From: Candidatus Latescibacterota bacterium
GTDB lineage: Bacteria; Latescibacterota; UBA2968; UBA8231
Reading direction: 5' to 3'
Assembly (NCBI GenBank): GCA_963422735.1
Contig: OY730476.1
Coordinates: forward strand, 1 to 64,000
DNA length: 64,000 nt
Shown: positions 27,343-60,262 of the stretch, piece by piece
How positions within the stretch are numbered: the stretch's first letter is position 1
How the letters are laid out: every line of letters starts with the position of its first letter
Translations under genes and position numbers: made by a program
Notes under the pieces: model-generated
Told to the model about the DNA's origin: nothing
Seen by the model: only the letters and a program-made list of their open reading frames with translations
Databases searched by the model: none

Positions 27343-27706
27343 CAGTGGTCAGTGGTTAGTGGTCAGTGGTCAGTGGTTAGTGGTCAGTGGTTAGTGGTCA
27401 GTGGTTAGGGGTTAGTGGTCAGTGGTTAGTGGTTAGTGGTTAGTGGTTAGTGGTTAGTGGTTAGTGGTTAGTGGTTAGTGGTTAGTGGTTAGTGGTTAGT
27501 GGTCAGTGGTCAGTGGTTAGTGGTTAGTGGTTAGTGGTTAGTGGTTAGTGGTCAGTGGTCAGGGGTTAGGGGTTAGTGGTCAGTGGTTAGTGGTTAGTGG
27601 TCAGGGGTTAGTGGTTAGTGGTTAGTGGTCAGTGGTTAGTAGTCAGTGGTTAGTGGTTAGTTTCCGTACCGCGCCTGCTGGAGAGGGACCAACCACTGAC
27701 CACTGA
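27343..27706. repeat. ~45-unit heptamer array (GTGGTTA/GTGGTCA/GGGGTTA) plus short inverted arm
   Basis: Tandem array 27343-27661; complementary CCAACCACTGACCACTGA at ~27690-27706. Confidence 0.97.
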
Positions 27707-37248: not shown

Positions 37249-37334
37249 TTAGTGGTTAGTGGACAGCGGACAGTGAATAGTGCCCCGTCGCCCCTAGCAT
37301 GGGGAGCAGACGGGAACTAACCACTAACCACTAA
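37249..37334. repeat. Heptamer hairpin element upstream of pgi
   Basis: Perfect 14-bp inverted repeat TTAGTGGTTAGTGG (37249-37262) / CCACTAACCACTAA (37321-37334). Confidence 0.88.
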
Positions 37335-43200: not shown

Positions 43201-43832
43201 GTCCTGCGCCAGTCGCTGAGGATTGGGTCGGGCGACTGCTCGGCGTAGCGGCGGCACCACGAGCGGGCGAGATGCTTTTTCTCGAGTAGGTATTCCAAGA
43301 TCTGTTCGAGATAGCGGCGCGGCCATTCGGCTAAGGTGCGCTGCAAAGCCCCTTTGTCCGGGTCGGAGTCGCGCAATCGGGCTAGGGACTCTAGAGTTTG
43401 GCGCACGGCTTGGTGCCGAAGCTGCACGGCATCTACTTCTTCCAAGACCGCAAAGGCCGGGTCCACATCCGCTTCAATGGGATACTCGCGCAACAGGGCT
43501 GTGCAGAAGGCGTGGATGGTGGAAATGCGCGCCGCGGGCAGGTCTGCGCGGATTTGCCGCAGGCGCTGCCGCTCTGGTTCGGGCAGATCCTGATCGAGGG
43601 CGTTGGACAGCCGCCGGGCGATGCGCTCGCGCATTTCCGCCGCGGCCTTTTGGGTAAACGTGATGGCCAGCACTTGGCGCACGCCGATTTCGGGATGCAG
43701 GCGCAACAGCTCGATGTAGCGCTCGACTAGCGTTGCGGTCTTGCCCGCGCCGGCGCTGGCGGTGACCGCGATATTGCGCTGGCTGTCGAGGGCCATGCGC
43801 TGGACTTCAGTTAGGGGGACGGTGCGCTTCAC
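40230..43832 (-). CDS. addA: AddA/UvrD-like helicase-nuclease
   Basis: ASAGAGKT, TFTQKAA, DEFQDT, VGDPKQSIYSFR, TVHAAKGLEF, YVACTRA; nuclease GVVD..VDYKTG. Confidence 0.88.
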   Translation of the reverse strand: MKRTVPLTEVQRMALDSQRNIAVTASAGAGKTATLVERYIELLRLHPEIGVRQVLAITFTQKAAAEMRERIARRLSNALDQDLPEPERQRLRQIRADLPAARISTIHAFCTALLREYPIEADVDPAFAVLEEVDAVQLRHQAVRQTLESLARLRDSDPDKGALQRTLAEWPRRYLEQILEYLLEKKHLARSWCRRYAEQSPDPILSDWRRTQQTAGAPAYRALLADAHFTEMLAELAELAPLTDARDSAVERLNPLCDFMRRLSQTPPPDEAIEILSRLAKGLLTNGKPLSGNRLGKKSNWEEAALARVRELVPALGRCLAPHADRLGLELGAADERAAAVLPALSRVFLRADARCESSKGNGNMLDMDDLLEKSHQLIAANADIRQRLAQHYRFALIDEFQDTDPLQWEIIRSLASPDGQMAGDKLFIVGDPKQSIYSFRAADVTVFARVRDAIAEANAAHKRDSRPFCDDGELLDASPTERLGALVMGENFRTLAQPIAFVNALFPKFMQAVPDEPFQVGYDPLVGCRSTSVSEGSVELLLLPPDDSRDAIEAALREAEFVARRLSHLLAGSDLQVTEEEGLRPPVPGDIALLLRRRRNLFAYEDALRAGGIPFQVVGGRGFYQRQEIYDLANILRALCNSGDDIALMGALRSPYFGLSDNALYALAAPHGGRLAEHLFDASRQQRLAPADQEAAADAVARLQCWRELRDRVPLVRLLHTILEDTGAWGFLCYGERGEQAIANVHKLLDLAREFRGPLADFAARLDLLTNEEQQEGEARLDADALNILTVHAAKGLEFPIVVVPDLAARFNLQNSAPVLIDAEKGIGLRTLDPEQGYKKTSSFIRSLINRNASRRQHAEEKRLLYVACTRARDHLLLGGALTDKHFAADLDAAADCLSWICGSLALTEADLARGAKAVAGVPSPLPIYTDPSAFPASATTDRRAEPAFLALDVAPAQAAEPVLDLLSPLDDPQARPELAVSELVLFAADPAAHHRQYVLGLPPWPLGQADAPRRRSILFGKLAHAGLEALSNSPDADPAALAADLVAAATLPVASYRASFERELATLLRRCHQSPLAARWLAHAEARTEVRFTLSLERGLVHGVVDYMGRGADGLWELVDYKTGHHANTAEAVQHYRLQLGIYALCLQALHPDQDEYRTTLYFADLDEAHLTRFTRADLAATRTRLDDLVAQIVENSG

Positions 43833-46800
43833 GACAAGTCCCTCATGCGTTGGGGATCGAGGCGGCAGCTTTGTTGATAAGGGCAGTGCGGGCAGATTTT
43901 GGCCGGGTCGTGGGCGGTGACGCGAAACACCCCACGGCGCATGGCTCGCGCATAGGAGAGGACGAAGCCGCGCACGGCGTCGAGGCGCTGGCGATACGCT
44001 TCGTGGTCGTACAGGCCGTAGCGACCGCTGGCGACATAGGCCGCATTGCGATGTGTGGCATCGGCAAATAGCCCGCTGCGGCCGCAGTCCTCTAGGTCGC
44101 GGAGCATCAGGTACGCCGCCCCGGCCCCTTCTCGCAGCCCGATTTCCTCGAACAGGGATTCAGCCGCTAGTAAGTAGAGCGGGAGCTGGAGGTTGAGACC
44201 GATGTCAATATCGGCTACGGAGGGCATGCGGCCGGTCTTGTAGTCGAAGACGACGAAGCGGCCATCGGCCGTGCGGTCGATGCGGTCGATCTTGCCGGAA
44301 AGCCGCACTTCGTCCCCGGTTTCTGGGTCGCCGATGGCATAGAGCGTGGTGGTCGATTGCTGGTCGCCCTCCCCCATGCCGGGGTAGCTGCCAAAGCTCA
44401 GCTCAAAATGGGTCGGCACGGCCGGATTAGCCGCGGCCGATTGCAGGCGGAGGAAGCAGGGCAAGATGCCCTCGCGCTCCCCGTCGTCAGAGCCGAGCAG
44501 ACGCTCTAATTCTCGATCCCAGAAAAAGCCCGTAAGCCTCATTCCCTCGGCGATTTGGCGGCCTCGGTGCCGCAGTTCCGCGATATTTGTGGCCAAGTTT
44601 TCCGTGCGTTCAGCCGCTTCGCCCCGGTCCGCATAGAAGTGGTAAAGAATACGGTGGACGAGGTTGCCGCGCTTGAGCGCCGAGTCGTCGGCTCCTGGGT
44701 CGTGGAGGGGCTGGAGGTTGAGCAGTTCTTGGGCAAAAAACCGGAAGGGACAGCGGCCGTACAGCTCTAGTTGAGTCGCGGAAAAAGAATGACCCGCGCC
44801 GAGGCGGGTGCGCAGCGCGTCGAGTAGCGGAGCCTCGTCGAGTACGCCTTCATAGTGGCCGAAACCCTCGGAACTCGTGCGCCGTTCAGCAATGTGCAAG
44901 CCGCGCACGAGATGTGCAGTGGCGCGGTCGTCGAGCCGCACGGCTTGGTTGTAGAGTGCGAGGGCGTCGTGTGCGCGCTCGGATTCGCGCACAGCGCACA
45001 GGCCGTGCCCCAATGCAAGGTGCAACTCGGCAAGGGTCCCCGGTGTGGATCCGACCTCGCACGGGGAAGGCTGCGGAGCGAGCAGGCCGTCTAACTCGGC
45101 GAAAAAGGGAGAGGGGGCAAGCATCTTGCTGCCCGACTGCTGGGGATAGAAGACGCCGAGGCCGCGGCGCGGTGTGCATACGGCGCGGTAGAACAGCAAG
45201 CGCTCGGCGGCGGTGGTGGCGTCCTCGTCTAAGTTCAGGGCGCGGCGCTGGGTTTCTTCGAGGAAAATATCGGCTGGCGGCAAGCGGGGAAATTCGCCTT
45301 GCACCAACCCGCCGAGGAAGAGGTAATCGCAGGGTGTGCTGCCCGCTGCGGCGAGGTCGGTCACCTGAATGCCAGCGCGCGTTGTGGTGGGGACATGCGC
45401 TTGAAAGATGGCGTCGCGCAGCAGGTCGGCGAACTGGCTCAGGGTGCGGGGTTGCAGGGCTGCGGCCGGCGCGCACAATTCGTCGAGTAGCTCCAAAAAG
45501 CACGCCACTGCCCGGCCGTCTTCTACCGTCCCATCTGCGAGCGCGTCTTCTACGCCGAGGGCGCCGAGGGCGTGGAGCAGATGGTGGCGGAAGGAGGGTA
45601 GGTCCTGTCGGCTCTCCAAGGGCTGGAGCAAGTCAAAGAGTGCGGTTAGGCTGGCTCGTAGGGGCTGGAGGGCCTCCCATTCGTCGCGCAGGGACTCGCG
45701 CCAAGTGGGGAAATCGTCGATTTCTTCGGAGACTGGCTCTCCTTCTCGTTCTAACTCGCGCTCTATGTAGGCGAAGGTGTCGTCAATGGCTGCGAGCCAT
45801 GCGCTGCGCCCGGTTGGCGGCGAAATGTTGCGGGTCCACGCAGCGAAGTCTGCGGCGGAAAGCGTGCTGGTCTGGCGCGCGAATGCGTAGCGCAGTCGCA
45901 CCAAGGGCAAGCTGAGCAAGCGGAAGAGCGCGGCGCGGCTGTAGCGCTCTAGCACCGCGTTGATGAGCGCGAAGATGGTGTTCATGGCGGGCGCCGTGGC
46001 AAGGGGCCGCCCACGCGCGAGATAAAAAGGCAGGCCGTGGCGCGGCAGCACTTCCTCCACCAGCGCGGCATAGTCGTCGAGGTTGCGGAAGCCAATGCGG
46101 ATCTGCGCTAGTGCTACCCCTTGCTCTTGATGCAACTGGCGGACGCGGCGGGCCATCGCTGCGACTTCACCGACCCGGTCTGGGCAGGCGACCCGCTCTA
46201 CGGGCGCATCGAGGGAGTCGCGGCTGTGGGTGAAGAGACGGCCGGCAAACGCGGCGGCTGGGTATTGCTCGGCGGTGCTGTATTCGACGCGGACAGCGCG
46301 GGCGCGGAGGAATTCGTACAGGGAGCGCGTGCGGGCAAAAAAACTTGGGGCCTCGGGAATGTAGTCGAGCAACGCGATGGATTCTGGAACGAGGGCTAGC
46401 AGCTTGTCCAGCACGGGCAAAAAAGGTGTGGGCACTTCTACAAAGCCGCAGAACACGAGCAGGCTAAGGCCGGGGAAGTGCCGGGCGAGAACCGAGCGGT
46501 CGAGGTAGGTATCCACGGCGGCAAAACGCTCGCGGCTCCCGCTCCAGCCAGCCGCAAGGCGCTCTAGGTAGGTTGCATAAAGAGCCTGCAATTCCGCGCT
46601 GCGCTGAGTTGTTCCCCGCAGGTCACTCGGCTGGGTGCCCGTTTCCTCCAACCGGCGGAACAACTGAGTTAGCCCCCGGCTCAGCCGCTCGGGTCGGCTG
46701 CTGTAATAGGGTGCGCTGGCTGCGAGGGCGTCTTCGACTAAGAGCCGGTGGGCGCTGAGGGGCAGGGTTGGTCGCTGGCCGGGGCAGAGGCTATAGAGGA

Positions 46801-47017
46801 TGTCGGTAAAACTGTTTAGGTCGAGGGCCAAGTGCCCGGTGAGCAGGTGGCCGGCGCGGATGAGCTGCCGCCGCATGAGCTGGGCTTGGAAGTGCGATGG
46901 AAAGAGCCAGAGAAAGGACTCGCTGTCGCTTGCGTCGAGACGCGCCAAACAGCGCTCGTACGCGGGCGATGCCTTGTCGGGATGGGCTGGGCCGTAGATG
47001 AGGGTCAGTTCGCCCAT
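43829..47017 (-). CDS. addB: AddB-like nuclease subunit with Fe-S staple
   Basis: SATQLELY..CPFRFF, GKIDRID, DYKTG, CPHCPYQQSC; overlaps addA start. Confidence 0.85.
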   Translation of the reverse strand: MGELTLIYGPAHPDKASPAYERCLARLDASDSESFLWLFPSHFQAQLMRRQLIRAGHLLTGHLALDLNSFTDILYSLCPGQRPTLPLSAHRLLVEDALAASAPYYSSRPERLSRGLTQLFRRLEETGTQPSDLRGTTQRSAELQALYATYLERLAAGWSGSRERFAAVDTYLDRSVLARHFPGLSLLVFCGFVEVPTPFLPVLDKLLALVPESIALLDYIPEAPSFFARTRSLYEFLRARAVRVEYSTAEQYPAAAFAGRLFTHSRDSLDAPVERVACPDRVGEVAAMARRVRQLHQEQGVALAQIRIGFRNLDDYAALVEEVLPRHGLPFYLARGRPLATAPAMNTIFALINAVLERYSRAALFRLLSLPLVRLRYAFARQTSTLSAADFAAWTRNISPPTGRSAWLAAIDDTFAYIERELEREGEPVSEEIDDFPTWRESLRDEWEALQPLRASLTALFDLLQPLESRQDLPSFRHHLLHALGALGVEDALADGTVEDGRAVACFLELLDELCAPAAALQPRTLSQFADLLRDAIFQAHVPTTTRAGIQVTDLAAAGSTPCDYLFLGGLVQGEFPRLPPADIFLEETQRRALNLDEDATTAAERLLFYRAVCTPRRGLGVFYPQQSGSKMLAPSPFFAELDGLLAPQPSPCEVGSTPGTLAELHLALGHGLCAVRESERAHDALALYNQAVRLDDRATAHLVRGLHIAERRTSSEGFGHYEGVLDEAPLLDALRTRLGAGHSFSATQLELYGRCPFRFFAQELLNLQPLHDPGADDSALKRGNLVHRILYHFYADRGEAAERTENLATNIAELRHRGRQIAEGMRLTGFFWDRELERLLGSDDGEREGILPCFLRLQSAAANPAVPTHFELSFGSYPGMGEGDQQSTTTLYAIGDPETGDEVRLSGKIDRIDRTADGRFVVFDYKTGRMPSVADIDIGLNLQLPLYLLAAESLFEEIGLREGAGAAYLMLRDLEDCGRSGLFADATHRNAAYVASGRYGLYDHEAYRQRLDAVRGFVLSYARAMRRGVFRVTAHDPAKICPHCPYQQSCRLDPQRMRDLS

Positions 47018-47023
47018 TAAGAG

Positions 47024-47170
47024 CAGTGGTTAGGGGTTAGTGATCAGTGGTTAGGGGTTAGTGATCAGTGGTTAGGGGTTAGTGATCAGTGGTTAGTGAT
47101 CAGTGATCAGGGGTTAGGGGTCGGTCCCAACTCGCCCTTGGGTGTGGTGCTGGGGCTGACCACAGCCCCT
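47024..47170. repeat. Heptamer array with 21-bp higher-order repeat upstream of addB
   Basis: (GTGGTTA GGGGTTA GTGATCA) x3 plus further units to ~47122; short complementary arm CTGACCACAGCCCCT at ~47156-47170. Confidence 0.92.
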
Positions 47171-51060: not shown

Positions 51061-51370
51061 CGCGATAGCAAAGAGTTGGGCCGCATGATATAGCAGTCCT
51101 AAATGACTTGAAAATATAATATAGAACGTTCATTGGCTCTGTCTCTTCTGTCTATAAGAAGTCATCTCCCGCGAAGGCGGGCTTCACCGAGAGGCGTGAC
51201 ATATAGTATTGAATGACGTAGGATTGCTATATGCTTCCTTTTATTGAGCCTTGACACAGCACTCGTTTTAAGAGCGTGAATAGGTTTACCGCGTAAGCAC
51301 TAGGTAGTTAGGGAGATGGGTCGTTTGGGCACAACGAATAACGGACTTTCCTAGAATAAGGACTGTTTAA

Positions 51371-51393
51371 TTAGTGGTTAGTGGTTAGTGGTC
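51371..51393. repeat. Short heptamer run (TAGTGGT x3)
   Basis: TAGTGGTTAGTGGTTAGTGGTCC, about 230 nt upstream of res. Confidence 0.8.
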
Positions 51394-51618
51394 CGTCCCA
51401 TCCGCCCCCTTGGCGACGGGTACCCGGCGACGGGTCCCGGAACATTGACGCGGGGGACTGCGCTGGTCCGGACGAGGGCTACGGGCCAGCCGAGTGAAAC
51501 CGCCTAAATGAAACCGGAATCCCCAACCGTACACTAGGAAATTCCGACTAATAAACCTAAACTAGGTAGGAACTGCACGGCAATGTGTTTAGGTGTCATG
51601 TAGTTAGGGGGCATCGTT

Positions 51619-54600
51619 TTGACTGAATTCTTTGAACAGCCCATTCTCAACTCGCCTTACGAGCGCCCGAACCGGCATTGGGAACTGGACGAGACCGGGC
51701 AGCCGACCCAGCAGATCGTCGAACACCGCCGGCAGGCCGAGTTTATCACGCCGATCCCACAGCCTAAGAAGCGCAAGGGAAAAGAGCAACAAGCCGCGCT
51801 GGTATTCGACGCGGCGGCGCAGAAGCTCGAAACCGCCGGCCAGCAATACGACCTGACGGCCATCATCAACGGGGTTCGTCAGCAGGTTGATCGCTGGCGC
51901 GACCTACCGAATCCGAGCCAATGGCAGGTGACCCCGGAGACCGCTCGGCTGCTCCGGCACTGGCGGGACCACCGCTTCAGTGGGACTCGGCCCTTCTTCT
52001 GCCAAGTCGAAGCGGTAGAGACCGCTATATGGCTCACTGAAGTTGCGCCTAGAACGCGATCCGGCAAGAGCTTCCTCGACCACCTAGCGAACGCCAACAA
52101 CGACGCCAATCCAGACCTGCCCCTGCCGCGGTTGGCACTCAAGTTGGCGACCGGCACCGGCAAGACCACGGTTATGGCCATGTTGATTGCTTGGCAGACC
52201 GTCAACGCGGTGCGCCGGCCTCAGAGCCGCGGCTTCACGCGCGGTTTCCTCGTAGTCACGCCCGGGATCACCATCAAGGACCGCCTGCGGGTGCTGCAAC
52301 CAAACGATCCGGACAGTTACTACCAGAGCCGCGAGTTGGTTCCAAGCGACATGCTCCCCGACTTGGAAAAGGCCAAGATCGTCATTACCAACTACCACGC
52401 CTTCAAGCGGCGCGAACGCATGGAGCTTTCCAAAGGCGGGCGATCTTTGCTTCAGGGACGGGGCGAGACGCTCTCGACCTTGGAGACCGAGGGGCAAATG
52501 CTGCAACGGGTGATGCCCGAACTCATGGGCGTAAAGAACGTCTTGATCCTCAACGACGAAGCGCACCACTGCTACCGCGAGAAGCCGGGCGAGGGGGAGG
52601 AAGGTGCGCTCAAGGGCGATGACAGAAAGGAAGCCGAAAAGAACAGGGAGGCGGCGCGGCTGTGGATTTCCGGGCTGGAAATCGTCGGCAGCAAGCTCGG
52701 CATCAACCGGGTGATGGACCTCTCGGCAACGCCGTTCTTTTTGCGCGGGTCGGGCTACGCCGAAGGTACGTTGTTCCCCTGGACGATGTGCGACTTCTCG
52801 CTCATGGACGCCATTGAATGCGGCATCGTCAAACTGCCCCGCGTGCCGGTGGCCGACAACATCCCCGGCAGCGACATGCCCAAGTTTCGCAATCTTTGGG
52901 AACACATCCGCACCAACATGCCGAAGAAGGGGCGGGGCAAGGCCAAGGAACTCGATCCTCTCAGTTTGCCCGTGGAGCTACAGACCGCACTGGAAGCCCT
53001 GTATGGGCATTATCGGAAGACCTTCGCGCTTATGCAGGAGGCGGGCATTGGCGTGCCGCCGTGCTTCATTGTGGTCTGCAACAACACCTCGACCTCCAAG
53101 TTGGTGTACGACTACATCTCCGGCTTCCACCGCGAGAACGAGGATGGTTCAAAGAAACTTGAGAATGGTCGCCTAGCGCTGTTTCGCAACTTTGACGAAC
53201 AGGGCAACCAGTACCCACGGCCTCGCACCCTGCTAATCGACAGCGAACAATTGGAGTCTGGCGACGCGCTCGACAAGAACTTCCGCAACATGGCGGCAGA
53301 TGAGATCGAGCGTTTCCGCCGCGAGATTATCGAACGTACCGGCGACCGTCGTCAGGCCGGAAATATCACCGACCAAGACTTGCTGCGGGAAGTGATGAAT
53401 ACAGTCGGCAAACCGGGGCGGCTAGGGGATTCGATTCGCTGTGTGGTGTCGGTCTCTATGCTCACGGAAGGGTGGGATGCGAACACCGTCAGCCATGTGT
53501 TGGGCGTGCGGGCCTTTGGGACGCAGTTGCTTTGCGAGCAGGTCGTTGGCCGTGCGTTGCGCCGGCAGTCCTACGATCTCAACGAAAAAGGTTTGTTCGA
53601 TGTCGAGTACGCCGATGTCTTGGGCATTCCATTCGACTTTACGGCCAAGCCCGTTGTGGCCCCGACGAGACCGCCGCGAGAGACCGTTCAGGTGCGGGCC
53701 ATGCGACCTGAACGGGATGCGCTGGAGATTTGTTTTCCTCGGGTAGCCGGGTATCGAGTGGAATTGCCGGAAGAGCGGCTCAAAGCCGAGTTCAACGAGG
53801 ACTCGGTGCTGGAACTCACGCCCGATCTGGTTGGTCCGTCGAGAACGAGGAACCAGGGGATTATCGGCGAGGGCGTGGATCTCAATCTGGTTCACACCAA
53901 CGACCTGCGGCGCTCGACCCTACTTTTTCATCTGACCCATCGGTTGCTCTACACCAAGTACCGCGATCCGGGCGAAGAGCCCAAGCTCTATCTTTTCGGC
54001 CAGCTCAAGCGCATCGCCAAGCAGTGGCTCGATGGCTGCCTCGTCTGCAAGGGCAGCACCTATCCGGCCCAACTCATGTACCAGGGACTAGCCGACACAG
54101 CCTGCGGGCGCATCGCCGCCGCCATCACGCAAGCGAAAATCGACCATCATCCGGTCAAAGCGGTGCTCGATCCGTACAACTCCGTTGGTTCAACAGCCCA
54201 CGTGAATTTCAACACGACCAAGGCCAGCCGCTGGCAGACCGACGCCCGCCGTTGCCACATCAACTGGATCATCCTCGACAGCGACTGGGAAGCGGAGTTT
54301 TGCCGCGTCGCCGAATCCCATCCGCACGTCAAAGCCTACGTCAAAAACCACAATCTCGGCTTGGAAGTGCCCTACCGTTGCGGGTCGGAAACGCGGACGT
54401 ATATCCCGGACTTTATCGTCCGCATTGATGATGGCGGTGGCGATGAGGATCTGCTGCATCTGATCGTCGAGATCAAGGGCTATCGGGGGGAAGACGCCAA
54501 GGACAAGAAGACGACCATGGACACCTATTGGGTGCCTGGCGTGAATCATCGCGGGGACTACGGGCGCTGGGCTTTTGCCGAGCTTACCGATGTGTTCGAG

Positions 54601-54654
54601 GTGGAAGCTGCGTTCAATCGTTTGGTTGAGCGGTTCCGGTTGAGGACCGGGTAG
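51619..54654 (+). CDS. Type III restriction-like endonuclease/helicase (Res)
   Basis: LATGTGKT, NDEAHH, SATP, MLTEGWD, EQVVGR.LR; C-terminal YIPDF..VEIKG nuclease. Confidence 0.92.
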   Translation: MTEFFEQPILNSPYERPNRHWELDETGQPTQQIVEHRRQAEFITPIPQPKKRKGKEQQAALVFDAAAQKLETAGQQYDLTAIINGVRQQVDRWRDLPNPSQWQVTPETARLLRHWRDHRFSGTRPFFCQVEAVETAIWLTEVAPRTRSGKSFLDHLANANNDANPDLPLPRLALKLATGTGKTTVMAMLIAWQTVNAVRRPQSRGFTRGFLVVTPGITIKDRLRVLQPNDPDSYYQSRELVPSDMLPDLEKAKIVITNYHAFKRRERMELSKGGRSLLQGRGETLSTLETEGQMLQRVMPELMGVKNVLILNDEAHHCYREKPGEGEEGALKGDDRKEAEKNREAARLWISGLEIVGSKLGINRVMDLSATPFFLRGSGYAEGTLFPWTMCDFSLMDAIECGIVKLPRVPVADNIPGSDMPKFRNLWEHIRTNMPKKGRGKAKELDPLSLPVELQTALEALYGHYRKTFALMQEAGIGVPPCFIVVCNNTSTSKLVYDYISGFHRENEDGSKKLENGRLALFRNFDEQGNQYPRPRTLLIDSEQLESGDALDKNFRNMAADEIERFRREIIERTGDRRQAGNITDQDLLREVMNTVGKPGRLGDSIRCVVSVSMLTEGWDANTVSHVLGVRAFGTQLLCEQVVGRALRRQSYDLNEKGLFDVEYADVLGIPFDFTAKPVVAPTRPPRETVQVRAMRPERDALEICFPRVAGYRVELPEERLKAEFNEDSVLELTPDLVGPSRTRNQGIIGEGVDLNLVHTNDLRRSTLLFHLTHRLLYTKYRDPGEEPKLYLFGQLKRIAKQWLDGCLVCKGSTYPAQLMYQGLADTACGRIAAAITQAKIDHHPVKAVLDPYNSVGSTAHVNFNTTKASRWQTDARRCHINWIILDSDWEAEFCRVAESHPHVKAYVKNHNLGLEVPYRCGSETRTYIPDFIVRIDDGGGDEDLLHLIVEIKGYRGEDAKDKKTTMDTYWVPGVNHRGDYGRWAFAELTDVFEVEAAFNRLVERFRLRTG

Positions 54655-54695: not shown

Positions 54696-56438
54696 ATGCC
54701 TTGGGATAGCGATAGCTTGTTGCAGCAACTCAAGCTTGGCGAGGACAGCCGCGTTGAGTTCAAAGAAGCCGGGTTCACCGGCGACCGCGTCCGTGCGCCT
54801 CATCGGGACGCTATCGCCGACGAGTTGGCCGCTTTGGGCAACACCATCGGCGGCACCTTGATCTTCAGCGCGTCCGACGCTGGTGAGGTGCGGTCGATGA
54901 ACCGCGAACAGATGGATGCGTTGGAAGCCTTCGTCAGCGAGATTTGTGCAGACAGCATCCGTCCTCCGTTGGCGTTTGTCACCCAACGGTTGGCTCTGCC
55001 GGACGGTTCGTTTGTGCTGGTTGTCGAAGTCGAACAAAGTGCGCTGGTCCACAAGAGTCCCGGGGGATACCTTTCCCGACAAGGCAGTGCCAAGCGAGAG
55101 ATGTCGTCGGAGGCATTGAACCGTCTGTTTCAGCAACGGGGGCGTTCTGGCCTGCTCGGCCCTGACGAAGCGATCGTTGCCGGAACCGGATCCAACACGC
55201 TCGATGAAACCCTAACAGATCGTTTCATGAGTTCGCGCGCCACCGAGCCCACAATCGTCCAACTCACAAAGCTGGGGTTGGTGCGGGAGGATGACAGCGG
55301 TGCGATCCGCGCAACGGTCGCCGGGGTGTTGCTTTGCTCCGGACGCCCGGATGAGCACATACGCGGCGCGATGATCGAAGCAGTTCGCTATCGCGGCACG
55401 GTGCTTGGCCGAGCGAGTCAGCACGACGCGGCGTCCATCACCGGCCCGTTGGACCAGCAGATCCGCGATGCGGTCAACTTCGCTAGACTCAACACGCGGG
55501 TAGCGGCGCGCAAGGCCCCGGGGCGAGTAGAGACCCCGCAATTTAGTCCGCGAGCAGTATTTGAGGCCATCGTCAACGCGGTGGTCCACCGCGACTACTC
55601 AGTGGAGAACGCAAAGATACGGCTCTTCATCTTCGACGACCGCCTTGAGTTGTACTCGCCGGGTGCTCTGCCCAACACGCTGCCCATCGAAGCCATGCGC
55701 AATCGACAAGCCACCCGCAATGAAACGCTCGCGTCCATCCTCCGTATGCTCGCGGTAGGGGATATTGCCGGTGCGGGTGACCGGCAGTATTTCTTGGAGC
55801 AACGCGGTGAAGGGGTTCCGATCATCTACGAGCAGACCCGGGAGCTGACAGGACGCGATCCAGAGTACGAACTGCTCGGCGGCGCGGAACTGCGGCTGAC
55901 GATACCTTCTGCCCGTCCGCCGGTAACGGGCATCGAAGGGGAAGTGTTGGTGTCTGCCGCCGGTCAGCCGCTTGCAAGTGCAAAGGTCGTTGCGCTGTAC
56001 CCCAACAAGACTTGGATGGAGGGGGAAACCAATGCGTTTGGTCGGGTCCATTTCGGGTTTCACTCGAAACTTCCCATCACCGTTTTCTGCGCGGCACCGG
56101 GACACACTGCCCACGTGGAGCGGGATTGGCACCCGCCGGAATCGCTCTCGGTGCAGCTTGAACCGCTGCCAATGGGTGGATCAACGGTGTTCACGGAGGG
56201 GACAGGTCACTTGCCCAATTTGACCGGGCGGCTAGATCCGATCCTCGACGATCTCGACCGCATGTACCTGTACGCGACAAACGTCGCCATTGACGAAGGC
56301 AAGCAGCAACCCGTGCGTTTCAAACTGAATCAGCCCTTGCAGCTTACAGATGTCAACGGGTTTGAATGGATCGTGCGGTTCATTGAGATGATCGGAAAGT
56401 CGGCACTGTTGGAATACGAATCCCCGTCCCCCGATTAA
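54696..56438 (+). CDS. Schlafen/AlbA_2 + HATPase_c_4 protein with atypical C-terminal domain
   Basis: GEDSRVEFKE, ALGNTIGG, EAIVNAVVHRDY, DRLELYSPG.LP, RN, EQRGEG. Confidence 0.85.
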   Translation: MPWDSDSLLQQLKLGEDSRVEFKEAGFTGDRVRAPHRDAIADELAALGNTIGGTLIFSASDAGEVRSMNREQMDALEAFVSEICADSIRPPLAFVTQRLALPDGSFVLVVEVEQSALVHKSPGGYLSRQGSAKREMSSEALNRLFQQRGRSGLLGPDEAIVAGTGSNTLDETLTDRFMSSRATEPTIVQLTKLGLVREDDSGAIRATVAGVLLCSGRPDEHIRGAMIEAVRYRGTVLGRASQHDAASITGPLDQQIRDAVNFARLNTRVAARKAPGRVETPQFSPRAVFEAIVNAVVHRDYSVENAKIRLFIFDDRLELYSPGALPNTLPIEAMRNRQATRNETLASILRMLAVGDIAGAGDRQYFLEQRGEGVPIIYEQTRELTGRDPEYELLGGAELRLTIPSARPPVTGIEGEVLVSAAGQPLASAKVVALYPNKTWMEGETNAFGRVHFGFHSKLPITVFCAAPGHTAHVERDWHPPESLSVQLEPLPMGGSTVFTEGTGHLPNLTGRLDPILDDLDRMYLYATNVAIDEGKQQPVRFKLNQPLQLTDVNGFEWIVRFIEMIGKSALLEYESPSPD

Positions 56439-56923: not shown

Positions 56924-59900
56924 ATGGCAAAACGAAAATCACCTAAGACGGTCGCAACTCTGCGGCACGAGGACGCAGCGCGTAAGAATATCCCCACGGC
57001 CGAGTATCAGGCGGTGATGGAGGAGGACGACCGGAATCCCATTGAGGTCGCGTACGAGCGGCGCAACCGGGACCTCGACCCGCAGCTTGTTTGGCGCGGC
57101 AAGGACGAGCAGAACGAGTCGGACCTCGTGGTGCAAGCACCGCCGCTGTTCATTCAGGAGAAGGTGCATCCGCAGGTGCTGATTGACGATCTGCGGCAGC
57201 GGAGCAAGGAGACGGAGAAGGAGGATGGCGAATCGGGCTTCCAGACGGATCTGTTCGCGGATTTCAACGGCCTGCCGAGTGCAGACGCCCAGACTGAGTT
57301 CTACCAGCACGACGCCAACTGGTCGAATCGGATGATTCTTGGGGACAGCTTGCAGGTGATGGCGTCTTTGGCCGAACGCGAGGGCCTGCGCGGCAAGGTG
57401 CAGTGCATCTATCTCGACCCGCCCTACGGCATCAAGTTCAACTCGAACTTCCAGTGGTCAACCACCAGCCGCGATGTGAAGGACGGCAAGGCCGAGCACA
57501 TCACCCGCGAGCCGGAGCAGGTCAAGGCGTTTCGGGATACGTGGCGGGACGGGATTCATTCGTACCTGACGTACTTGCGGGATCGGCTGACGGTGGCGCG
57601 GGATCTGTTGACGGAGAGTGGATCGATCTTTGTGCAGATTGGGGATGAGAATGTGCATCGGGTAAGGGCGGTGATGGATGAGGTGTTTGGGGAGGGGAAT
57701 TTTGTTGGGTTGATTACTTTTATGAAGGCAACAGCACAGACTTCCAAGCTGCTATCAACAGCATCAGATTACTTGATTTGGTACGCTCGGTTGAAGCCAC
57801 AGGCAAAATATCGCGCACCATTGCTAAAAAAAGTAATTGGTCGGGCCGGAGCTACGGGCTACTCGAACATAGAAGCGTCTGATGGAACTATCTCTCGTCG
57901 TATAAGCCAAGAGGAACGGGAAAATCCTGCTCTTATTTCTACAGATGAGAGAGTGTTCGCATTAGACCATATACGTGGCACAAGGACTCCGAATCCTGCT
58001 GACCTTAAAGGTTATACATTTCAAGGCACAACCTTTAATTCCGACGGACGCTATTGCTGGAAAACCGACAAAAAGGGTCTCGACAACCTTGACAAGAGCT
58101 GGCCGGTTGTAAAAGCAGGAAACCAATTATCGTACAAGCGATATTTCCACGATGATTGCCTATCCCGTTCGACAAACTGGGCGATACCGCTGGTATTGCT
58201 ACGGATAAAGTCGATACGTCGTGGAGACGAAACCAAAGTCATCCAACGCTGCATCCTCATGACCACAGACCCTGGCGACCTCGTCCTCGACCCCACCTGC
58301 GGCTCCGGCACCACCGCCTACGTCGCCGAGCAGTGGGGCCGCCGCTGGATCACCATCGACACCTCCCGCGTCGCCCTCGCACTCGCCCGCGCCCGCATCA
58401 TGGGCGCACGCTATCCCTGGTATCTGCTCGCCGACAGCCCCGAAGGCCGGCGCAAGGAAGCGGAAATCAGTGGCCAGGCGTCAGTGACCGGTGGTCAGTT
58501 TAACGACAACTCGCCGACCACTGGTCACTCTCACTCCATCCGCCAAGGCTTTGTCTATCAGCGCGTCCCCCACATTACGCTCAAGTCCATCGCCAACAAC
58601 GCCGAGATCGACGTAATCTGGGAGAAGTACGAGGAGCGGCTTGCGCCGCTCCGTGAACAGTTGTCAGCCCACCGGCCACAGACCACTGACCACCGGCCAC
58701 TCGAAGAATGGGAGATACCGCGTGAGCGTCCAGAAGACTGGCCACCGGCCACTGAACCACTGATCACTGCTTTCTGGAAGCAGCGCATCGCCCGACAAAA
58801 GGAAATCGACGCTTCCATCGCCGCCAAAGCCGACTATGAATACCTCTACGACAAGCCCTACGAAGACAACAAGAAAGTCCGCGTGGCTGGCCCGTTTACG
58901 GTGGAAAGCCTGTCGCCGCACCGCCTGTTGGGCGTGGACGAGAACGACGAACTCATCATTGATAAAGCTGCCGAAGACAAACCCGACTACGGCGAAAAGC
59001 AGGACTTTGCCGAGATGATCCTCGATAATCTCAAAACCTCTGGCGTCCAGCAGGCGCACAAAGACGACAAAATCAACTTCAGCTCACTCGTCCCCTGGCC
59101 CGGCCACCTCGTCTGCGCCGAAGGCCGGTTTGATAGTGGTCAGTGGCCAGTGGTCAGTGGCCAGAAGAAGAACGCACAAGCCACTGGTCACAGACCACGG
59201 GCTACTGAACACCGCGCCGGCATTTTCATTGGCCCGGAATTCGGCACCGTCTCCCGTCCCGACCTCGTGGAAGCAGTCCGCGAGGCCGCCGACGCCGGCT
59301 TCGACGTTTTAATCGCCTGCGCCTTCAACTATGACGCCCACGCCTCGGAGTTCAACAAACTTGGCCGCGTCCCCATCCTCAAGGCGCGCATGAACGCCGA
59401 CCTGCATATGGCCGACGATCTCAAAAACACCGGCAAAGGCAACCTCTTCGTCATCTTCGGCGAGCCGGATATTACAGTGACCAGTGGTCAGTGGCTGGTG
59501 GCCAGTAACGGGAGAATGATTGCGAATTATGAGCACGTTAAAGAGTTATCAGGACTTGGAAGTCTGGAAGAAATCAATCGAACTGGCAGAGATGGTCTAT
59601 CGAATCTCTGCCAAGTTTCAGCCGGAAGAAAAATTCGGCATAACCAGCCAAGTGCGGAGGGCGGCGGTATCCGTGGCAGCGAATATCGCAGAGGGAGCAG
59701 AGCGTCACGGGACCAAGGAATTTCTCCAATTTCTGGGGATAGCCAGCGGTTCTCTAGCAGAGACGGAGACCTTTCTGATTCTGGCGCAGAAGCTGGGAAT
59801 GGCCCCAGCCGAGCAGATCAACCCCCTGCTATCGCAGGCGGCGGACGTTGGACGGATGCTCAATGGGCTCAAGCGCTCGCTGCGGTCCAGGAACTGACTC

Positions 59901-60262
59901 ACGCGGACTTCCCGCTGTCCCTGACCACAGGCCACTGGTCACAGGCCACTGTCCACGGCGTGGACGTATTTCATCCGAACACCGGCGAAATCCGCAGCGA
60001 CAGCGCCGACGGCATCGCCTGCTGGTTCGTCGATACCGACTACAACGAGGAAAGCTTCTTCGTGCGCCACGCCTACTTCCTCGGCGCCAACGATCCGTAC
60101 AAGACGCTCAAGACGACGCTCAAAGCCGAGATCAATCGAGAAGCTTGGGAAACCCTCAAAAGCGACACCTCCCGGCCTTTCGCCAAGCCGCAGTCGGGCC
60201 GCATCGCGGTGAAGGTGATCAATCACTTAGGGGACGAGGTGATGAAGGTGTTTCGGGTGTGA
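56924..60262 (+). CDS. Type III-like N6/N4 DNA methyltransferase (Mod, beta order) with repeat-derived insertions
   Basis: YLDPPYGI (motif IV), variable TRD, LDPTCGSGTT (motif I), C-terminal GRIAVKVINHLGDE. Confidence 0.92.
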   Translation: MAKRKSPKTVATLRHEDAARKNIPTAEYQAVMEEDDRNPIEVAYERRNRDLDPQLVWRGKDEQNESDLVVQAPPLFIQEKVHPQVLIDDLRQRSKETEKEDGESGFQTDLFADFNGLPSADAQTEFYQHDANWSNRMILGDSLQVMASLAEREGLRGKVQCIYLDPPYGIKFNSNFQWSTTSRDVKDGKAEHITREPEQVKAFRDTWRDGIHSYLTYLRDRLTVARDLLTESGSIFVQIGDENVHRVRAVMDEVFGEGNFVGLITFMKATAQTSKLLSTASDYLIWYARLKPQAKYRAPLLKKVIGRAGATGYSNIEASDGTISRRISQEERENPALISTDERVFALDHIRGTRTPNPADLKGYTFQGTTFNSDGRYCWKTDKKGLDNLDKSWPVVKAGNQLSYKRYFHDDCLSRSTNWAIPLVLLRIKSIRRGDETKVIQRCILMTTDPGDLVLDPTCGSGTTAYVAEQWGRRWITIDTSRVALALARARIMGARYPWYLLADSPEGRRKEAEISGQASVTGGQFNDNSPTTGHSHSIRQGFVYQRVPHITLKSIANNAEIDVIWEKYEERLAPLREQLSAHRPQTTDHRPLEEWEIPRERPEDWPPATEPLITAFWKQRIARQKEIDASIAAKADYEYLYDKPYEDNKKVRVAGPFTVESLSPHRLLGVDENDELIIDKAAEDKPDYGEKQDFAEMILDNLKTSGVQQAHKDDKINFSSLVPWPGHLVCAEGRFDSGQWPVVSGQKKNAQATGHRPRATEHRAGIFIGPEFGTVSRPDLVEAVREAADAGFDVLIACAFNYDAHASEFNKLGRVPILKARMNADLHMADDLKNTGKGNLFVIFGEPDITVTSGQWLVASNGRMIANYEHVKELSGLGSLEEINRTGRDGLSNLCQVSAGRKIRHNQPSAEGGGIRGSEYRRGSRASRDQGISPISGDSQRFSSRDGDLSDSGAEAGNGPSRADQPPAIAGGGRWTDAQWAQALAAVQELTHADFPLSLTTGHWSQATVHGVDVFHPNTGEIRSDSADGIACWFVDTDYNEESFFVRHAYFLGANDPYKTLKTTLKAEINREAWETLKSDTSRPFAKPQSGRIAVKVINHLGDEVMKVFRV
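58468..59215. repeat. In-frame heptamer clusters inside mod
   Basis: Hairpin 58483-58496/58516-58529; CCACYGR-like runs 58669-58703 and 58736-58770; inverted runs 59134-59164/59181-59215. Confidence 0.88.
59475..59959. repeat. Inverted heptamer arms bracketing the nested gene
   Basis: Left five units 59475-59509; right five units 59925-59959; perfect 11-bp IR GTGACCAGTGG (59477-59487) / CCACTGGTCAC (59932-59942). Confidence 0.88.
59529..59897 (+). CDS. Four-helix-bundle protein (23S rRNA IVS protein / bAvd-like), nested in mod
   Basis: SYQDLEVWKKS, F..EEKFG.TSQ.RRAAVSV.ANIAEG, EF.QFL.IA.GSL.E.ET, ML.GL; upstream GGAGA; +1 frame relative to mod. Confidence 0.93.
   Translation: MSTLKSYQDLEVWKKSIELAEMVYRISAKFQPEEKFGITSQVRRAAVSVAANIAEGAERHGTKEFLQFLGIASGSLAETETFLILAQKLGMAPAEQINPLLSQAADVGRMLNGLKRSLRSRN

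Follow-up and report, generated by a model that had tools for sequence, protein, structure and literature searches.

The intervening sequence (IVS) in the 23S rRNA of Coxiella burnetii, as described in passages of PMC4990558, is an element of 428 nucleotides (nt) with a 28-bp terminal stem that is cut by RNase III and an S23p open reading frame (ORF) in its loop. For Geobacter metallireducens, parts of PMC2700814 (Aklujkar et al. 2009) describe paired inverted sites of four or five tandem hepta- or octanucleotide units, interpreted as binding sites of global regulators. PF05635 genes are placed inside cas loci in a portion of PMC3936711. The locus examined here joins PF05635 and heptamer repeats within a defence methylase gene, in a part essential to it: in a 64,000-nt stretch of a Candidatus Latescibacterota genome (positions 1 to 64,000 of contig OY730476.1, assembly GCA_963422735.1; hereafter, the window), a PF05635 gene lies nested within the type III methyltransferase gene mod, which also carries several runs of CAGTGGY-type heptamers. 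We know of no function for the very large PF05635 family and, to our knowledge, the heptamer repeats dispersed in bacterial genomes, including the short tandemly repeated repetitive (STRR) units of cyanobacteria, have no accepted explanation. In phase-variable type III mod genes (phasevarions), simple-sequence repeats switch expression, and ring proteins of the TRAP type are wrapped by repeated RNA triplets.

We propose, with a probability of roughly 0.55, that the heptamer runs in mod are the stem-forming arms of an IVS-type cassette together with its collapsed copies, and are neither native mod sequence nor an array for a single regulator. A preliminary description of this DNA, made from its letters, had taken the runs for candidate binding sites of the nested protein. 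Because each piece had to stay in frame, the selected traits (a host frame without stops, an intact small gene, and arms that complement each other) can be read directly from the locus. It is a clean, widely conserved case of two proteins encoded by one DNA stretch in different frames, and the near confinement of the extra runs to alleles with the cassette offers a concrete handle on whether the protein acts on its own repeats. No publication linking such repeats to the PF05635 family or describing nesting in mod was found in a search that covered subscription journals thinly.

The cassette and the heptamer runs of mod

Comparison of the junctions of 67 Mod loci shows that the cassette replaces a 39-nt β-hairpin loop of cassette-free Mods, the insertion site being 39 nt long (EPDI-DILDAEDGQIQVKVN-GV) in 47 of them. 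Cassette alleles at this junction measure 216, 435, 450, 477 (three loci), or 484 nt; one (L088) is truncated, another (L086) has an in-frame TAG within an arm, and a third (L005, 484 versus 477 nt) has one extra unit in its 5′ arm and a broken mod frame. A close relative, represented by a contig of run X5, is without 21 nt (three units) at 59183, in the C-type arm of hairpin 3, and keeps the frame; these two differences, of +7 and −21 nt, show repeats that gain or lose complete units. With 78% complementarity over 32 nt, the two cassette arms enclose the entire 503-nt element in both the minimum-energy and the centroid folds (−203.1 kcal/mol, z-score [z] −3.7, equaled by 0 of 100 shuffles), with an outer stem of 17 pairs in the minimum-energy fold that is paired in the centroid too. 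No Rfam family, rRNA included, scores above threshold in the window.

Three consecutive YAGTGRY units, with at most two mismatches, are matched 70 times in the window against 0.01 times expected from 100 shuffles, and 12 of these matches fall at 58468-59951. Self-similarity within the mod ORF is largely confined to a period of 7 (four runs, versus one at period 6 and none at periods 5, 8, 9, and 10), and the density of runs in mod is about 55 times that in the genome (1.8 versus 0.033 per kb). G-type and C-type runs in mod are cross-complementary, and the preliminary description suggested that alternative pairings between them could work as an RNA switch. Every CAGTGGY/CCACYGR cluster that the preliminary description had listed is found at its coordinates and, as it had also stated, the runs preserve the frame: all fall within the mod frame, which is open over 1112 codons, and their translations are the peptides that it named. 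Its characterization of several runs as five heptamers holds in part, in that the five 35-nt segments match a degenerate consensus at 29, 31, 29, 33, and 30 of 35 positions (the chance estimate being ~12.5), but one or two units in each five are degenerate, leaving three or four good ones. None of these runs is perfect, near-identical units never standing more than two in a row, and the mod ORF contains no long perfect tandem tract.

Both of the secondary structures that the preliminary description had picked out are present, at different strengths. The inverted pair at 59134-59215 (hairpin 3) is a strong hairpin (−48.0 kcal/mol, z −6.0, 0 of 200 shuffles as good), and the 14-bp hairpin with its one G-U pair (hairpin 1) has a weak fold that is modestly better than shuffles, seven of 200 being as good. 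The stretch from 58660 to 58775, with both direct-orientation C-type runs, folds no better than its shuffles (z +0.7). Coordinates and encoded peptides are given in Table 1.

Table 1. Coordinates of features in the window, in order of position
Feature	Position	Strand	Content
Miniature inverted-repeat transposable element (MITE) copy, ~205 nt	51343-51547		terminal inverted repeats and internal heptamer array; ~70 nt upstream of res ORF
res gene (ResIII/endonuclease)	51619-54654		upstream of mod
Type III mod gene	56924..60262	+	1112-codon ORF, stop-free through all repeat runs and nested gene; PF01555 2e-28
G-type run, site 1, 5′ half of hairpin 1	58468..58502	+	encodes ISGQASVTGGQ
Hairpin 1, 14-bp stem, one G-U	58483..58529	+	74-nt stretch 58462-58535 folds at −26.5 kcal/mol, z −2.2
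C-type run, site 2	58669..58703	+	encodes AHRPQTTDHRP
Second C-type run, direct repeat of 58669..58703	58736..58770	+	encodes DWPPATEPLIT
G-type arm of hairpin 3	59134..59168	+	encodes DSGQWPVVSGQ
C-type arm of hairpin 3	59181..59215	+	encodes ATGHRPRATEHR
Whole IVS-type cassette, 485 nt	59475..59959	+	inverted heptamer arms around PF05635 gene
Cassette 5′ arm, five units	59475..59509	+	encodes TVTSGQWLVASN
Nested four-helix-bundle gene (PF05635/TIGR02436)	59529..59897	+	+1 frame of mod; ATG 59529
Cassette 3′ arm, five units	59925..59959	+	encodes TTGHWSQATVHG

The nested gene matches PF05635 over the entire profile (1.5e-38, positions 1 to 106 of 106) and TIGR02436 (1.2e-36), and it is the only PF05635 copy in the 4.95-Mb single-contig genome. 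Its longest ORF (59520-59897, 125 codons) starts with TTG at 59520, although ATG 59529 is the likely start and would give a protein of 122 residues. Across the nested gene, the mod frame is free of stops in all 11 nested copies (protein identity down to 49%), as against 1 of 23 free-standing PF05635 copies in which the mod-equivalent frame is open (average, 6.4 stops); in none of the 11 nested copies is the third frame open. Substitutions among the nested copies concentrate at the third codon positions of the small gene (176, versus 67 and 50 at the others). The protein under constraint is therefore the small one, and what is kept of the host frame is mainly its openness. As far as stop counts and substitution patterns go, these comparisons show selection for an open host frame. 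In an AlphaFold model of the Mod C terminus (mean predicted local distance difference test score [pLDDT], 69), the peptides encoded by the arms form two long strands (segment residues 83-96 and 238-254, with block pLDDT values of 80 to 92), and segment residues 147-209 are modeled with low confidence.

Characterized family members are pentamers according to the preliminary description, and the solved relatives of the nested protein agree with this in having five chains per entry (PDB 2GSC and 2RLD), assemblies that we take to be pentamers. A role of the nested protein as Avd, the accessory protein of diversity-generating retroelements, was considered and rejected: PF22296 (bAvd) reaches 25 bits against a cut-off of 40, and no RVT_1 match, hence no reverse transcriptase partner, was found in the whole genome (95% complete). 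Separately, three PF05635 matches elsewhere (G003:C1:60753-61067, G217:C2:195369-195680, and G231:C15:62575-62871) lie inside open frames of 409, 550, and 430 codons, respectively, and may be further instances of nesting or fusion in other host genes.

Heptamer runs follow the nested gene among Mod relatives

A scan that used one genome per species retained 80 Mod loci from 582 relatives, seven of them with the nested gene (in one case as a remnant). YAGTGRY (CAGTGGY-type) runs are present in six of the seven loci with the gene but in only 2 of the 73 without it. Period-7 runs are similarly distributed (nine in the seven loci, four in the 73), and of the four in gene-free loci, three belong to one contig that is cut before the cassette site and the fourth is a run of N. 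The repeats are not, therefore, equally common without the gene, and the connection between heptamers and nested protein drawn in the preliminary description stands: these distributions support a true link between the runs and the nested gene. A near-identical Mod belongs to a genome of another phylum (G001), where all five matches to the four-unit pattern lie within the mod locus.

The loops of Mod that receive the runs can be followed in the protein alignment. At site 1, the loop is 34 amino acids (aa) long in the window; its length is 24 aa in 52 of the 54 Mod rows that lack the nested gene and 31 to 35 aa in 6 of the 19 that have it. At site 2 in relatives, a G-type arm precedes the C-type run. 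The PPATEPL form encoded by the second C-type run is found in rows with heptamer inserts at that position, including one without the nested gene (L016), the baseline there being WPEEVKRIH-like. The site 3 loop has at least 30 aa in 12 of the 19 rows with the gene versus 6 of the 54 without, and, judged by eye, peptides of the SGQ/TDH type occur at some site in 14 to 15 of the 19 rows with the gene and as relics in 4 to 5 of the 54 without. In the Mod of Thioflavicoccus mobilis (P0036), the site 3 loop has grown to 141 residues, in which G-arm and C-arm peptides alternate in a manner resembling tandem hairpins.

Among the best 120 protein matches to Mod, a ranking that favors look-alikes of the query, many lineages are represented, and in 119 the cassette site spans 100 residues or more. 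On a FastTree phylogeny of Mod, the nested gene requires at least eight gains or losses; as the tree spans a recombining gene and includes part of its variable recognition domain, we do not read this number as proof of repeated insertion.

Arm design in other lineages

As controls for the 150 nt that flank PF05635 genes to either side, we used segments shifted by 500 and 900 nt, taking the 95th percentile of the inverted-repeat scores of these controls as the threshold; the loci so compared are not independent, as kin share cassettes. The inverted-repeat score exceeds the threshold at 20 of 28 loci in the phylum of the window, at 24 of 28 in Verrucomicrobiota, and at 25 of 27 in Cyanobacteria. 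A period of 7 is present at 19 of 28 (3 of 50 controls), 20 of 28 (3 of 54 controls), and 13 of 27 (1 of 51 controls) of these loci, respectively, with a period of 8 at 10 of the 27 cyanobacterial loci. These counts show that, in the flanks sampled, PF05635 genes of three phyla are usually bordered by inverted arms of 7- or 8-nt tandem repeats. The units are lineage specific (GGCATAA, CAGGGGT, AGCTGAN, AGTGCCA, GGCAAAY, and ATTCCAG, among others), and the arms of any one cassette stay complementary. Free-standing cassettes lie between co-oriented genes of operons, e.g., between HlyD and ABC ATPase genes or between galT and galK.

By a strict chain measure applied to 56 loci, cassette arms have a modal length of four units and mostly three to five, with 104 of 112 arms having no more than six. 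The enrichment of five-unit runs that had been anticipated is not found, either in these arms or in the genome, where runs fall off from three to four units (38, 40, 27, and 8 runs with 3, 4, 5, and 6 units, respectively). Duplex energies in sense and antisense are without asymmetry in 34 cassettes (16 versus 18), and RNA.duplexfold, run on flanks of 170 to 200 nt, failed to separate real from displaced flanks and is thus a poor measure.

The repeat family in the genome and phylum

The genome contains 66 to 79 period-7 arrays, versus 0 to 11 for each other period tested (4 to 12). With a detector set to three units, 161 runs are found, grouped into 127 clusters, whereas a random genome of equal composition yields none; 26 of the 127 clusters are G-arm/C-arm hairpins, and of the 14 clusters located in open frames of 200 codons or more, mod holds 5. 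Free arrays grow to as many as 46 units, and a MITE with an internal heptamer array is present in about 54 copies. This MITE was considered as the source of the heptamer arrays in PF05635-free genomes and rejected, its conserved flank giving 54 matches here but zero or one in each of four such genomes. Other members of the same heptamer family within the window lie at 27343-27664, at 47024-47121, and at 37313-37333 (a single three-unit match on the minus strand), one of these arrays being a tract of ~46 units (GGTYAGT, with GGGGTTA variants); another of the three is situated just past the upstream end of the minus-strand ORF at 43829-47017, which encodes a PD-(D/E)XK nuclease.

Within the phylum, the CAGTGGY unit occurs in 27 of 151 genomes and PF05635 in 54 of 151, with both in 12. 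The unit is thus present in 12 of 54 genomes with the gene versus 15 of 97 without, no clear association among these phylum genomes, whose kin are not independent. The 15 unit-bearing genomes without a PF05635 match (of 27) include those with 225, 113, and 76 pattern matches, which rank among the highest counts in the phylum. In one genome without a match at E ≤ 1e-5 (G057), the five regions examined (L171 to L175) each hold a one-sided, perfect (CAGTGGT)n array of 4 to 19 units, and three of the five have in common a short motif in the flank, similar to that of the MITE in the window genome.

The mod locus and public sequencing runs

Mod is assigned to the type III methyltransferases by PADLOC (MTase_III PDLC03632, E = 0). 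Between 51619 and 60262, the order of genes is res, a cargo gene with Schlafen AlbA_2 and HATPase_c_4 domains (54696-56438), two small ORFs of 56 to 57 codons, and mod. At 58150-58250, where the low-GC recognition domain (GC 0.46 to 0.48 at 57600-58200) meets the conserved C-terminal part, ~30 Mod residues are unlike those of all relatives; the conserved YVVQT motif can be read there in another frame only, and the family sequence would return with three shifts of one base each, all of the same sign. This departure is either a scar that leaves Mod impaired or a product of homopolymer errors in the assembly. In a record from a different phylum (L014, Arenicellales), Mod is 94% identical over residues 480-1112 and the nested gene 98 to 99% identical, which points to a recent horizontal transfer, as judged from these identities, of the whole mod-plus-cassette unit.

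Four public runs were compared, all in the form of contigs, from which read ends and levels are not readable. In contigs of one of them (X17), loose ends at the cassette borders run on into the cassette-free form of the loop, so at least those contigs come from a cassette-free relative. The public runs also contain two joints and one 20-letter bridge that link a G-type and a C-type arm, probably originating from repeat copies elsewhere.

Proposed mechanism and alternatives

In the mechanism that we favor, a 485-nt cassette, composed of a PF05635 gene between two inverted arms of about five CAGTGGY units each, occupies a surface β-hairpin loop of a Mod of type III. The remaining runs belong to the same repeat family, which would have colonized three more loops of this Mod lineage (as a strong and a weak hairpin plus two C-type runs in direct orientation); most simply, they would be collapsed or solo-arm derivatives of cassettes. 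In the transcript or in single-stranded DNA, the arms would pair to form a long imperfect stem with the small gene in its loop, a layout like that of the ORF-bearing intervening sequences of 23S rRNA, where the stem is cut by RNase III. The peptides encoded by the arms would form two long strands that lengthen the native Mod hairpin, and the small gene would be read from its own start in the +1 frame. The element would persist in mod because every piece is in frame and stop-free, which would allow Mod to be read straight through. We infer that pairing is the selected property, that it acts at one of these two levels, and that the solo runs are derived from cassettes.

Several observations weigh against this reading. 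The arms are only ~78% paired when Watson-Crick pairs are counted, and they give no sign that the paired strand is RNA, mismatches in the arms of 20 clear cassettes being G:U-type and A:C-type in similar numbers (55 versus 46, p = 0.43). Within the nested clade, the outer stem is conserved with no double compensatory change, in an alignment that has too little variation and two rows out of register. The two RNA runs among the four public ones, which cover little and consist of contigs, hold just a cassette-free relative. A stem needs no 7-nt period, so the period is left unexplained, and cutting the stem in an mRNA would split mod, a poor fit with selection for read-through. CAGTGGY arrays are also common outside cassettes, both in this genome (127 clusters, and ~54 copies of a MITE with an internal array) and in genomes without a PF05635 match. 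The lack of an RNA strand sign and of compensatory change in the nested clade leads us to retain, alongside the stem, a model in which the units are bound by the protein; the stem is ranked above it because complementarity is the one property seen everywhere. Under binding, which we hold to be possible though distinctly less probable, the ring-forming four-helix-bundle protein would read the units, about one per subunit, on RNA or DNA, and the arms and solo runs would be operators serving autoregulation, control of mod, or propagation of the cassette. The near-constant 7-nt period of lineage-specific units in three phyla suggests a common ruler of this kind, as do the near limitation of mod runs to nested-gene alleles, the five chains of the solved relatives, and arms that are short and bounded (104 of 112 with six units or fewer) where free arrays grow to 46 units. 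The passages of PMC2700814 on Geobacter metallireducens, with heptanucleotide sites of five units in inverted pairs interpreted as regulator sites, are likewise in keeping with it. Units also track the protein clade, but this is expected from shared ancestry alone, and a five-unit peak is absent from genome runs and cassette arms, 8-nt units occur in 10 of 27 cyanobacterial cassettes, a single PF05635 gene faces 127 clusters in this genome, and 15 of 27 unit-bearing genomes of the phylum have no PF05635 match. A more speculative and somewhat more doubtful idea unites binding with the cassette: the protein and its heptamer arms might constitute a self-recognizing module, in which the ring reads its own lineage-specific units and so drives the copying or collapse of cassettes into nearby sites. 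If true, such a module would give rise in cis to solo hairpins like those in the mod loops, and in time to the heptamers dispersed throughout genomes, so that one mechanism would cover ribosomal intervening sequences, cassettes in operons and within genes, and the 7-base repeats of cyanobacteria, Geobacter, and other bacteria.

Two further accounts were considered. It is unlikely, in our view, that the runs are functionless fragments, with no tie to the nested gene, of an expanding microsatellite or MITE family that landed in tolerant loops of mod: the unit is indeed spread genome-wide (161 runs where a random genome has none), sits inside a MITE of ~54 copies, and is present in genomes without a PF05635 match, but mod is the sole clear intragenic host (5 of 14 clusters in open frames of at least 200 codons), the same runs recur in Mod alleles of other phyla whose genomes are otherwise free of such repeats, and they are almost absent from the 73 cassette-free Mods. 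Least probable of all, we think, is that the runs are contingency repeats that act as on/off switches of mod in the way simple-sequence repeats do in phasevarions. A unit of 7 nt is not divisible by 3, so one unit more or less shifts the mod frame, and the Mod is of type III; the allele with one added unit in the 5′ arm does have a broken mod frame, another has an in-frame TAG in an arm, and a close relative differs by three units with its frame intact. Slippage should be rare, however, in imperfect runs with at most two near-identical neighbors, a switch has no need of complementary pairs placed around a gene, and the same design lies between ordinary operon genes, where frame is irrelevant.

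Comparison with known systems

Like the repeats of phasevarion mod genes, the runs lie within a type III mod and have a unit length that three does not divide; one relative is frameshifted by a single unit, and another, 21 nt shorter, stays in frame. They differ in being short, imperfect, complementary tracts around a nested gene instead of one long, perfect tract. As with TRAP, a small protein of a ring-forming family lies beside evenly spaced repeats, although the number of units is not fixed at the number of subunits (mode of four, mostly three to five). The dispersed tandem 7-nt units are like the STRR heptamers of cyanobacteria, and TTGGTCA-like units flank PF05635 genes in three of the sampled cyanobacterial loci. 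There is no associated transposase or RAYT, which sets the cassettes apart from repetitive extragenic palindromic (REP) elements and MITEs; they are similar to these as small palindromic repeats in operon spacers between co-oriented genes, with gene-free solo hairpins resembling nonautonomous derivatives, and the true MITE of the window genome bears the same heptamer array.

The sites of Geobacter metallireducens are alike in unit and arrangement, the runs in the window also consisting of four or five tandem units of 7 to 8 nt, paired on opposite strands within and between genes, whereas the passages of PMC2700814 at hand make no tie to four-helix-bundle genes. Nearest in layout are the ORF-bearing IVSs of 23S rRNA, such as those in helix 45 of Coxiella burnetii and in Leptospira. 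The cassette differs from them in lying in frame inside the mod ORF, with the host frame open, and not in a helix of 23S rRNA, so that an RNase III cut would hit an mRNA; its arms are tandem heptamers that are 78% paired, compared with a Coxiella stem of 28 bp with one mismatch and one bulge in the parts of PMC4990558 that describe it. Common to both, to the extent that those parts cover the rRNA elements, are a PF05635/S23p-type ORF in the loop, a length of ~430 to 490 nt, terminal inverted repeats, and a sporadic distribution suggesting horizontal spread.

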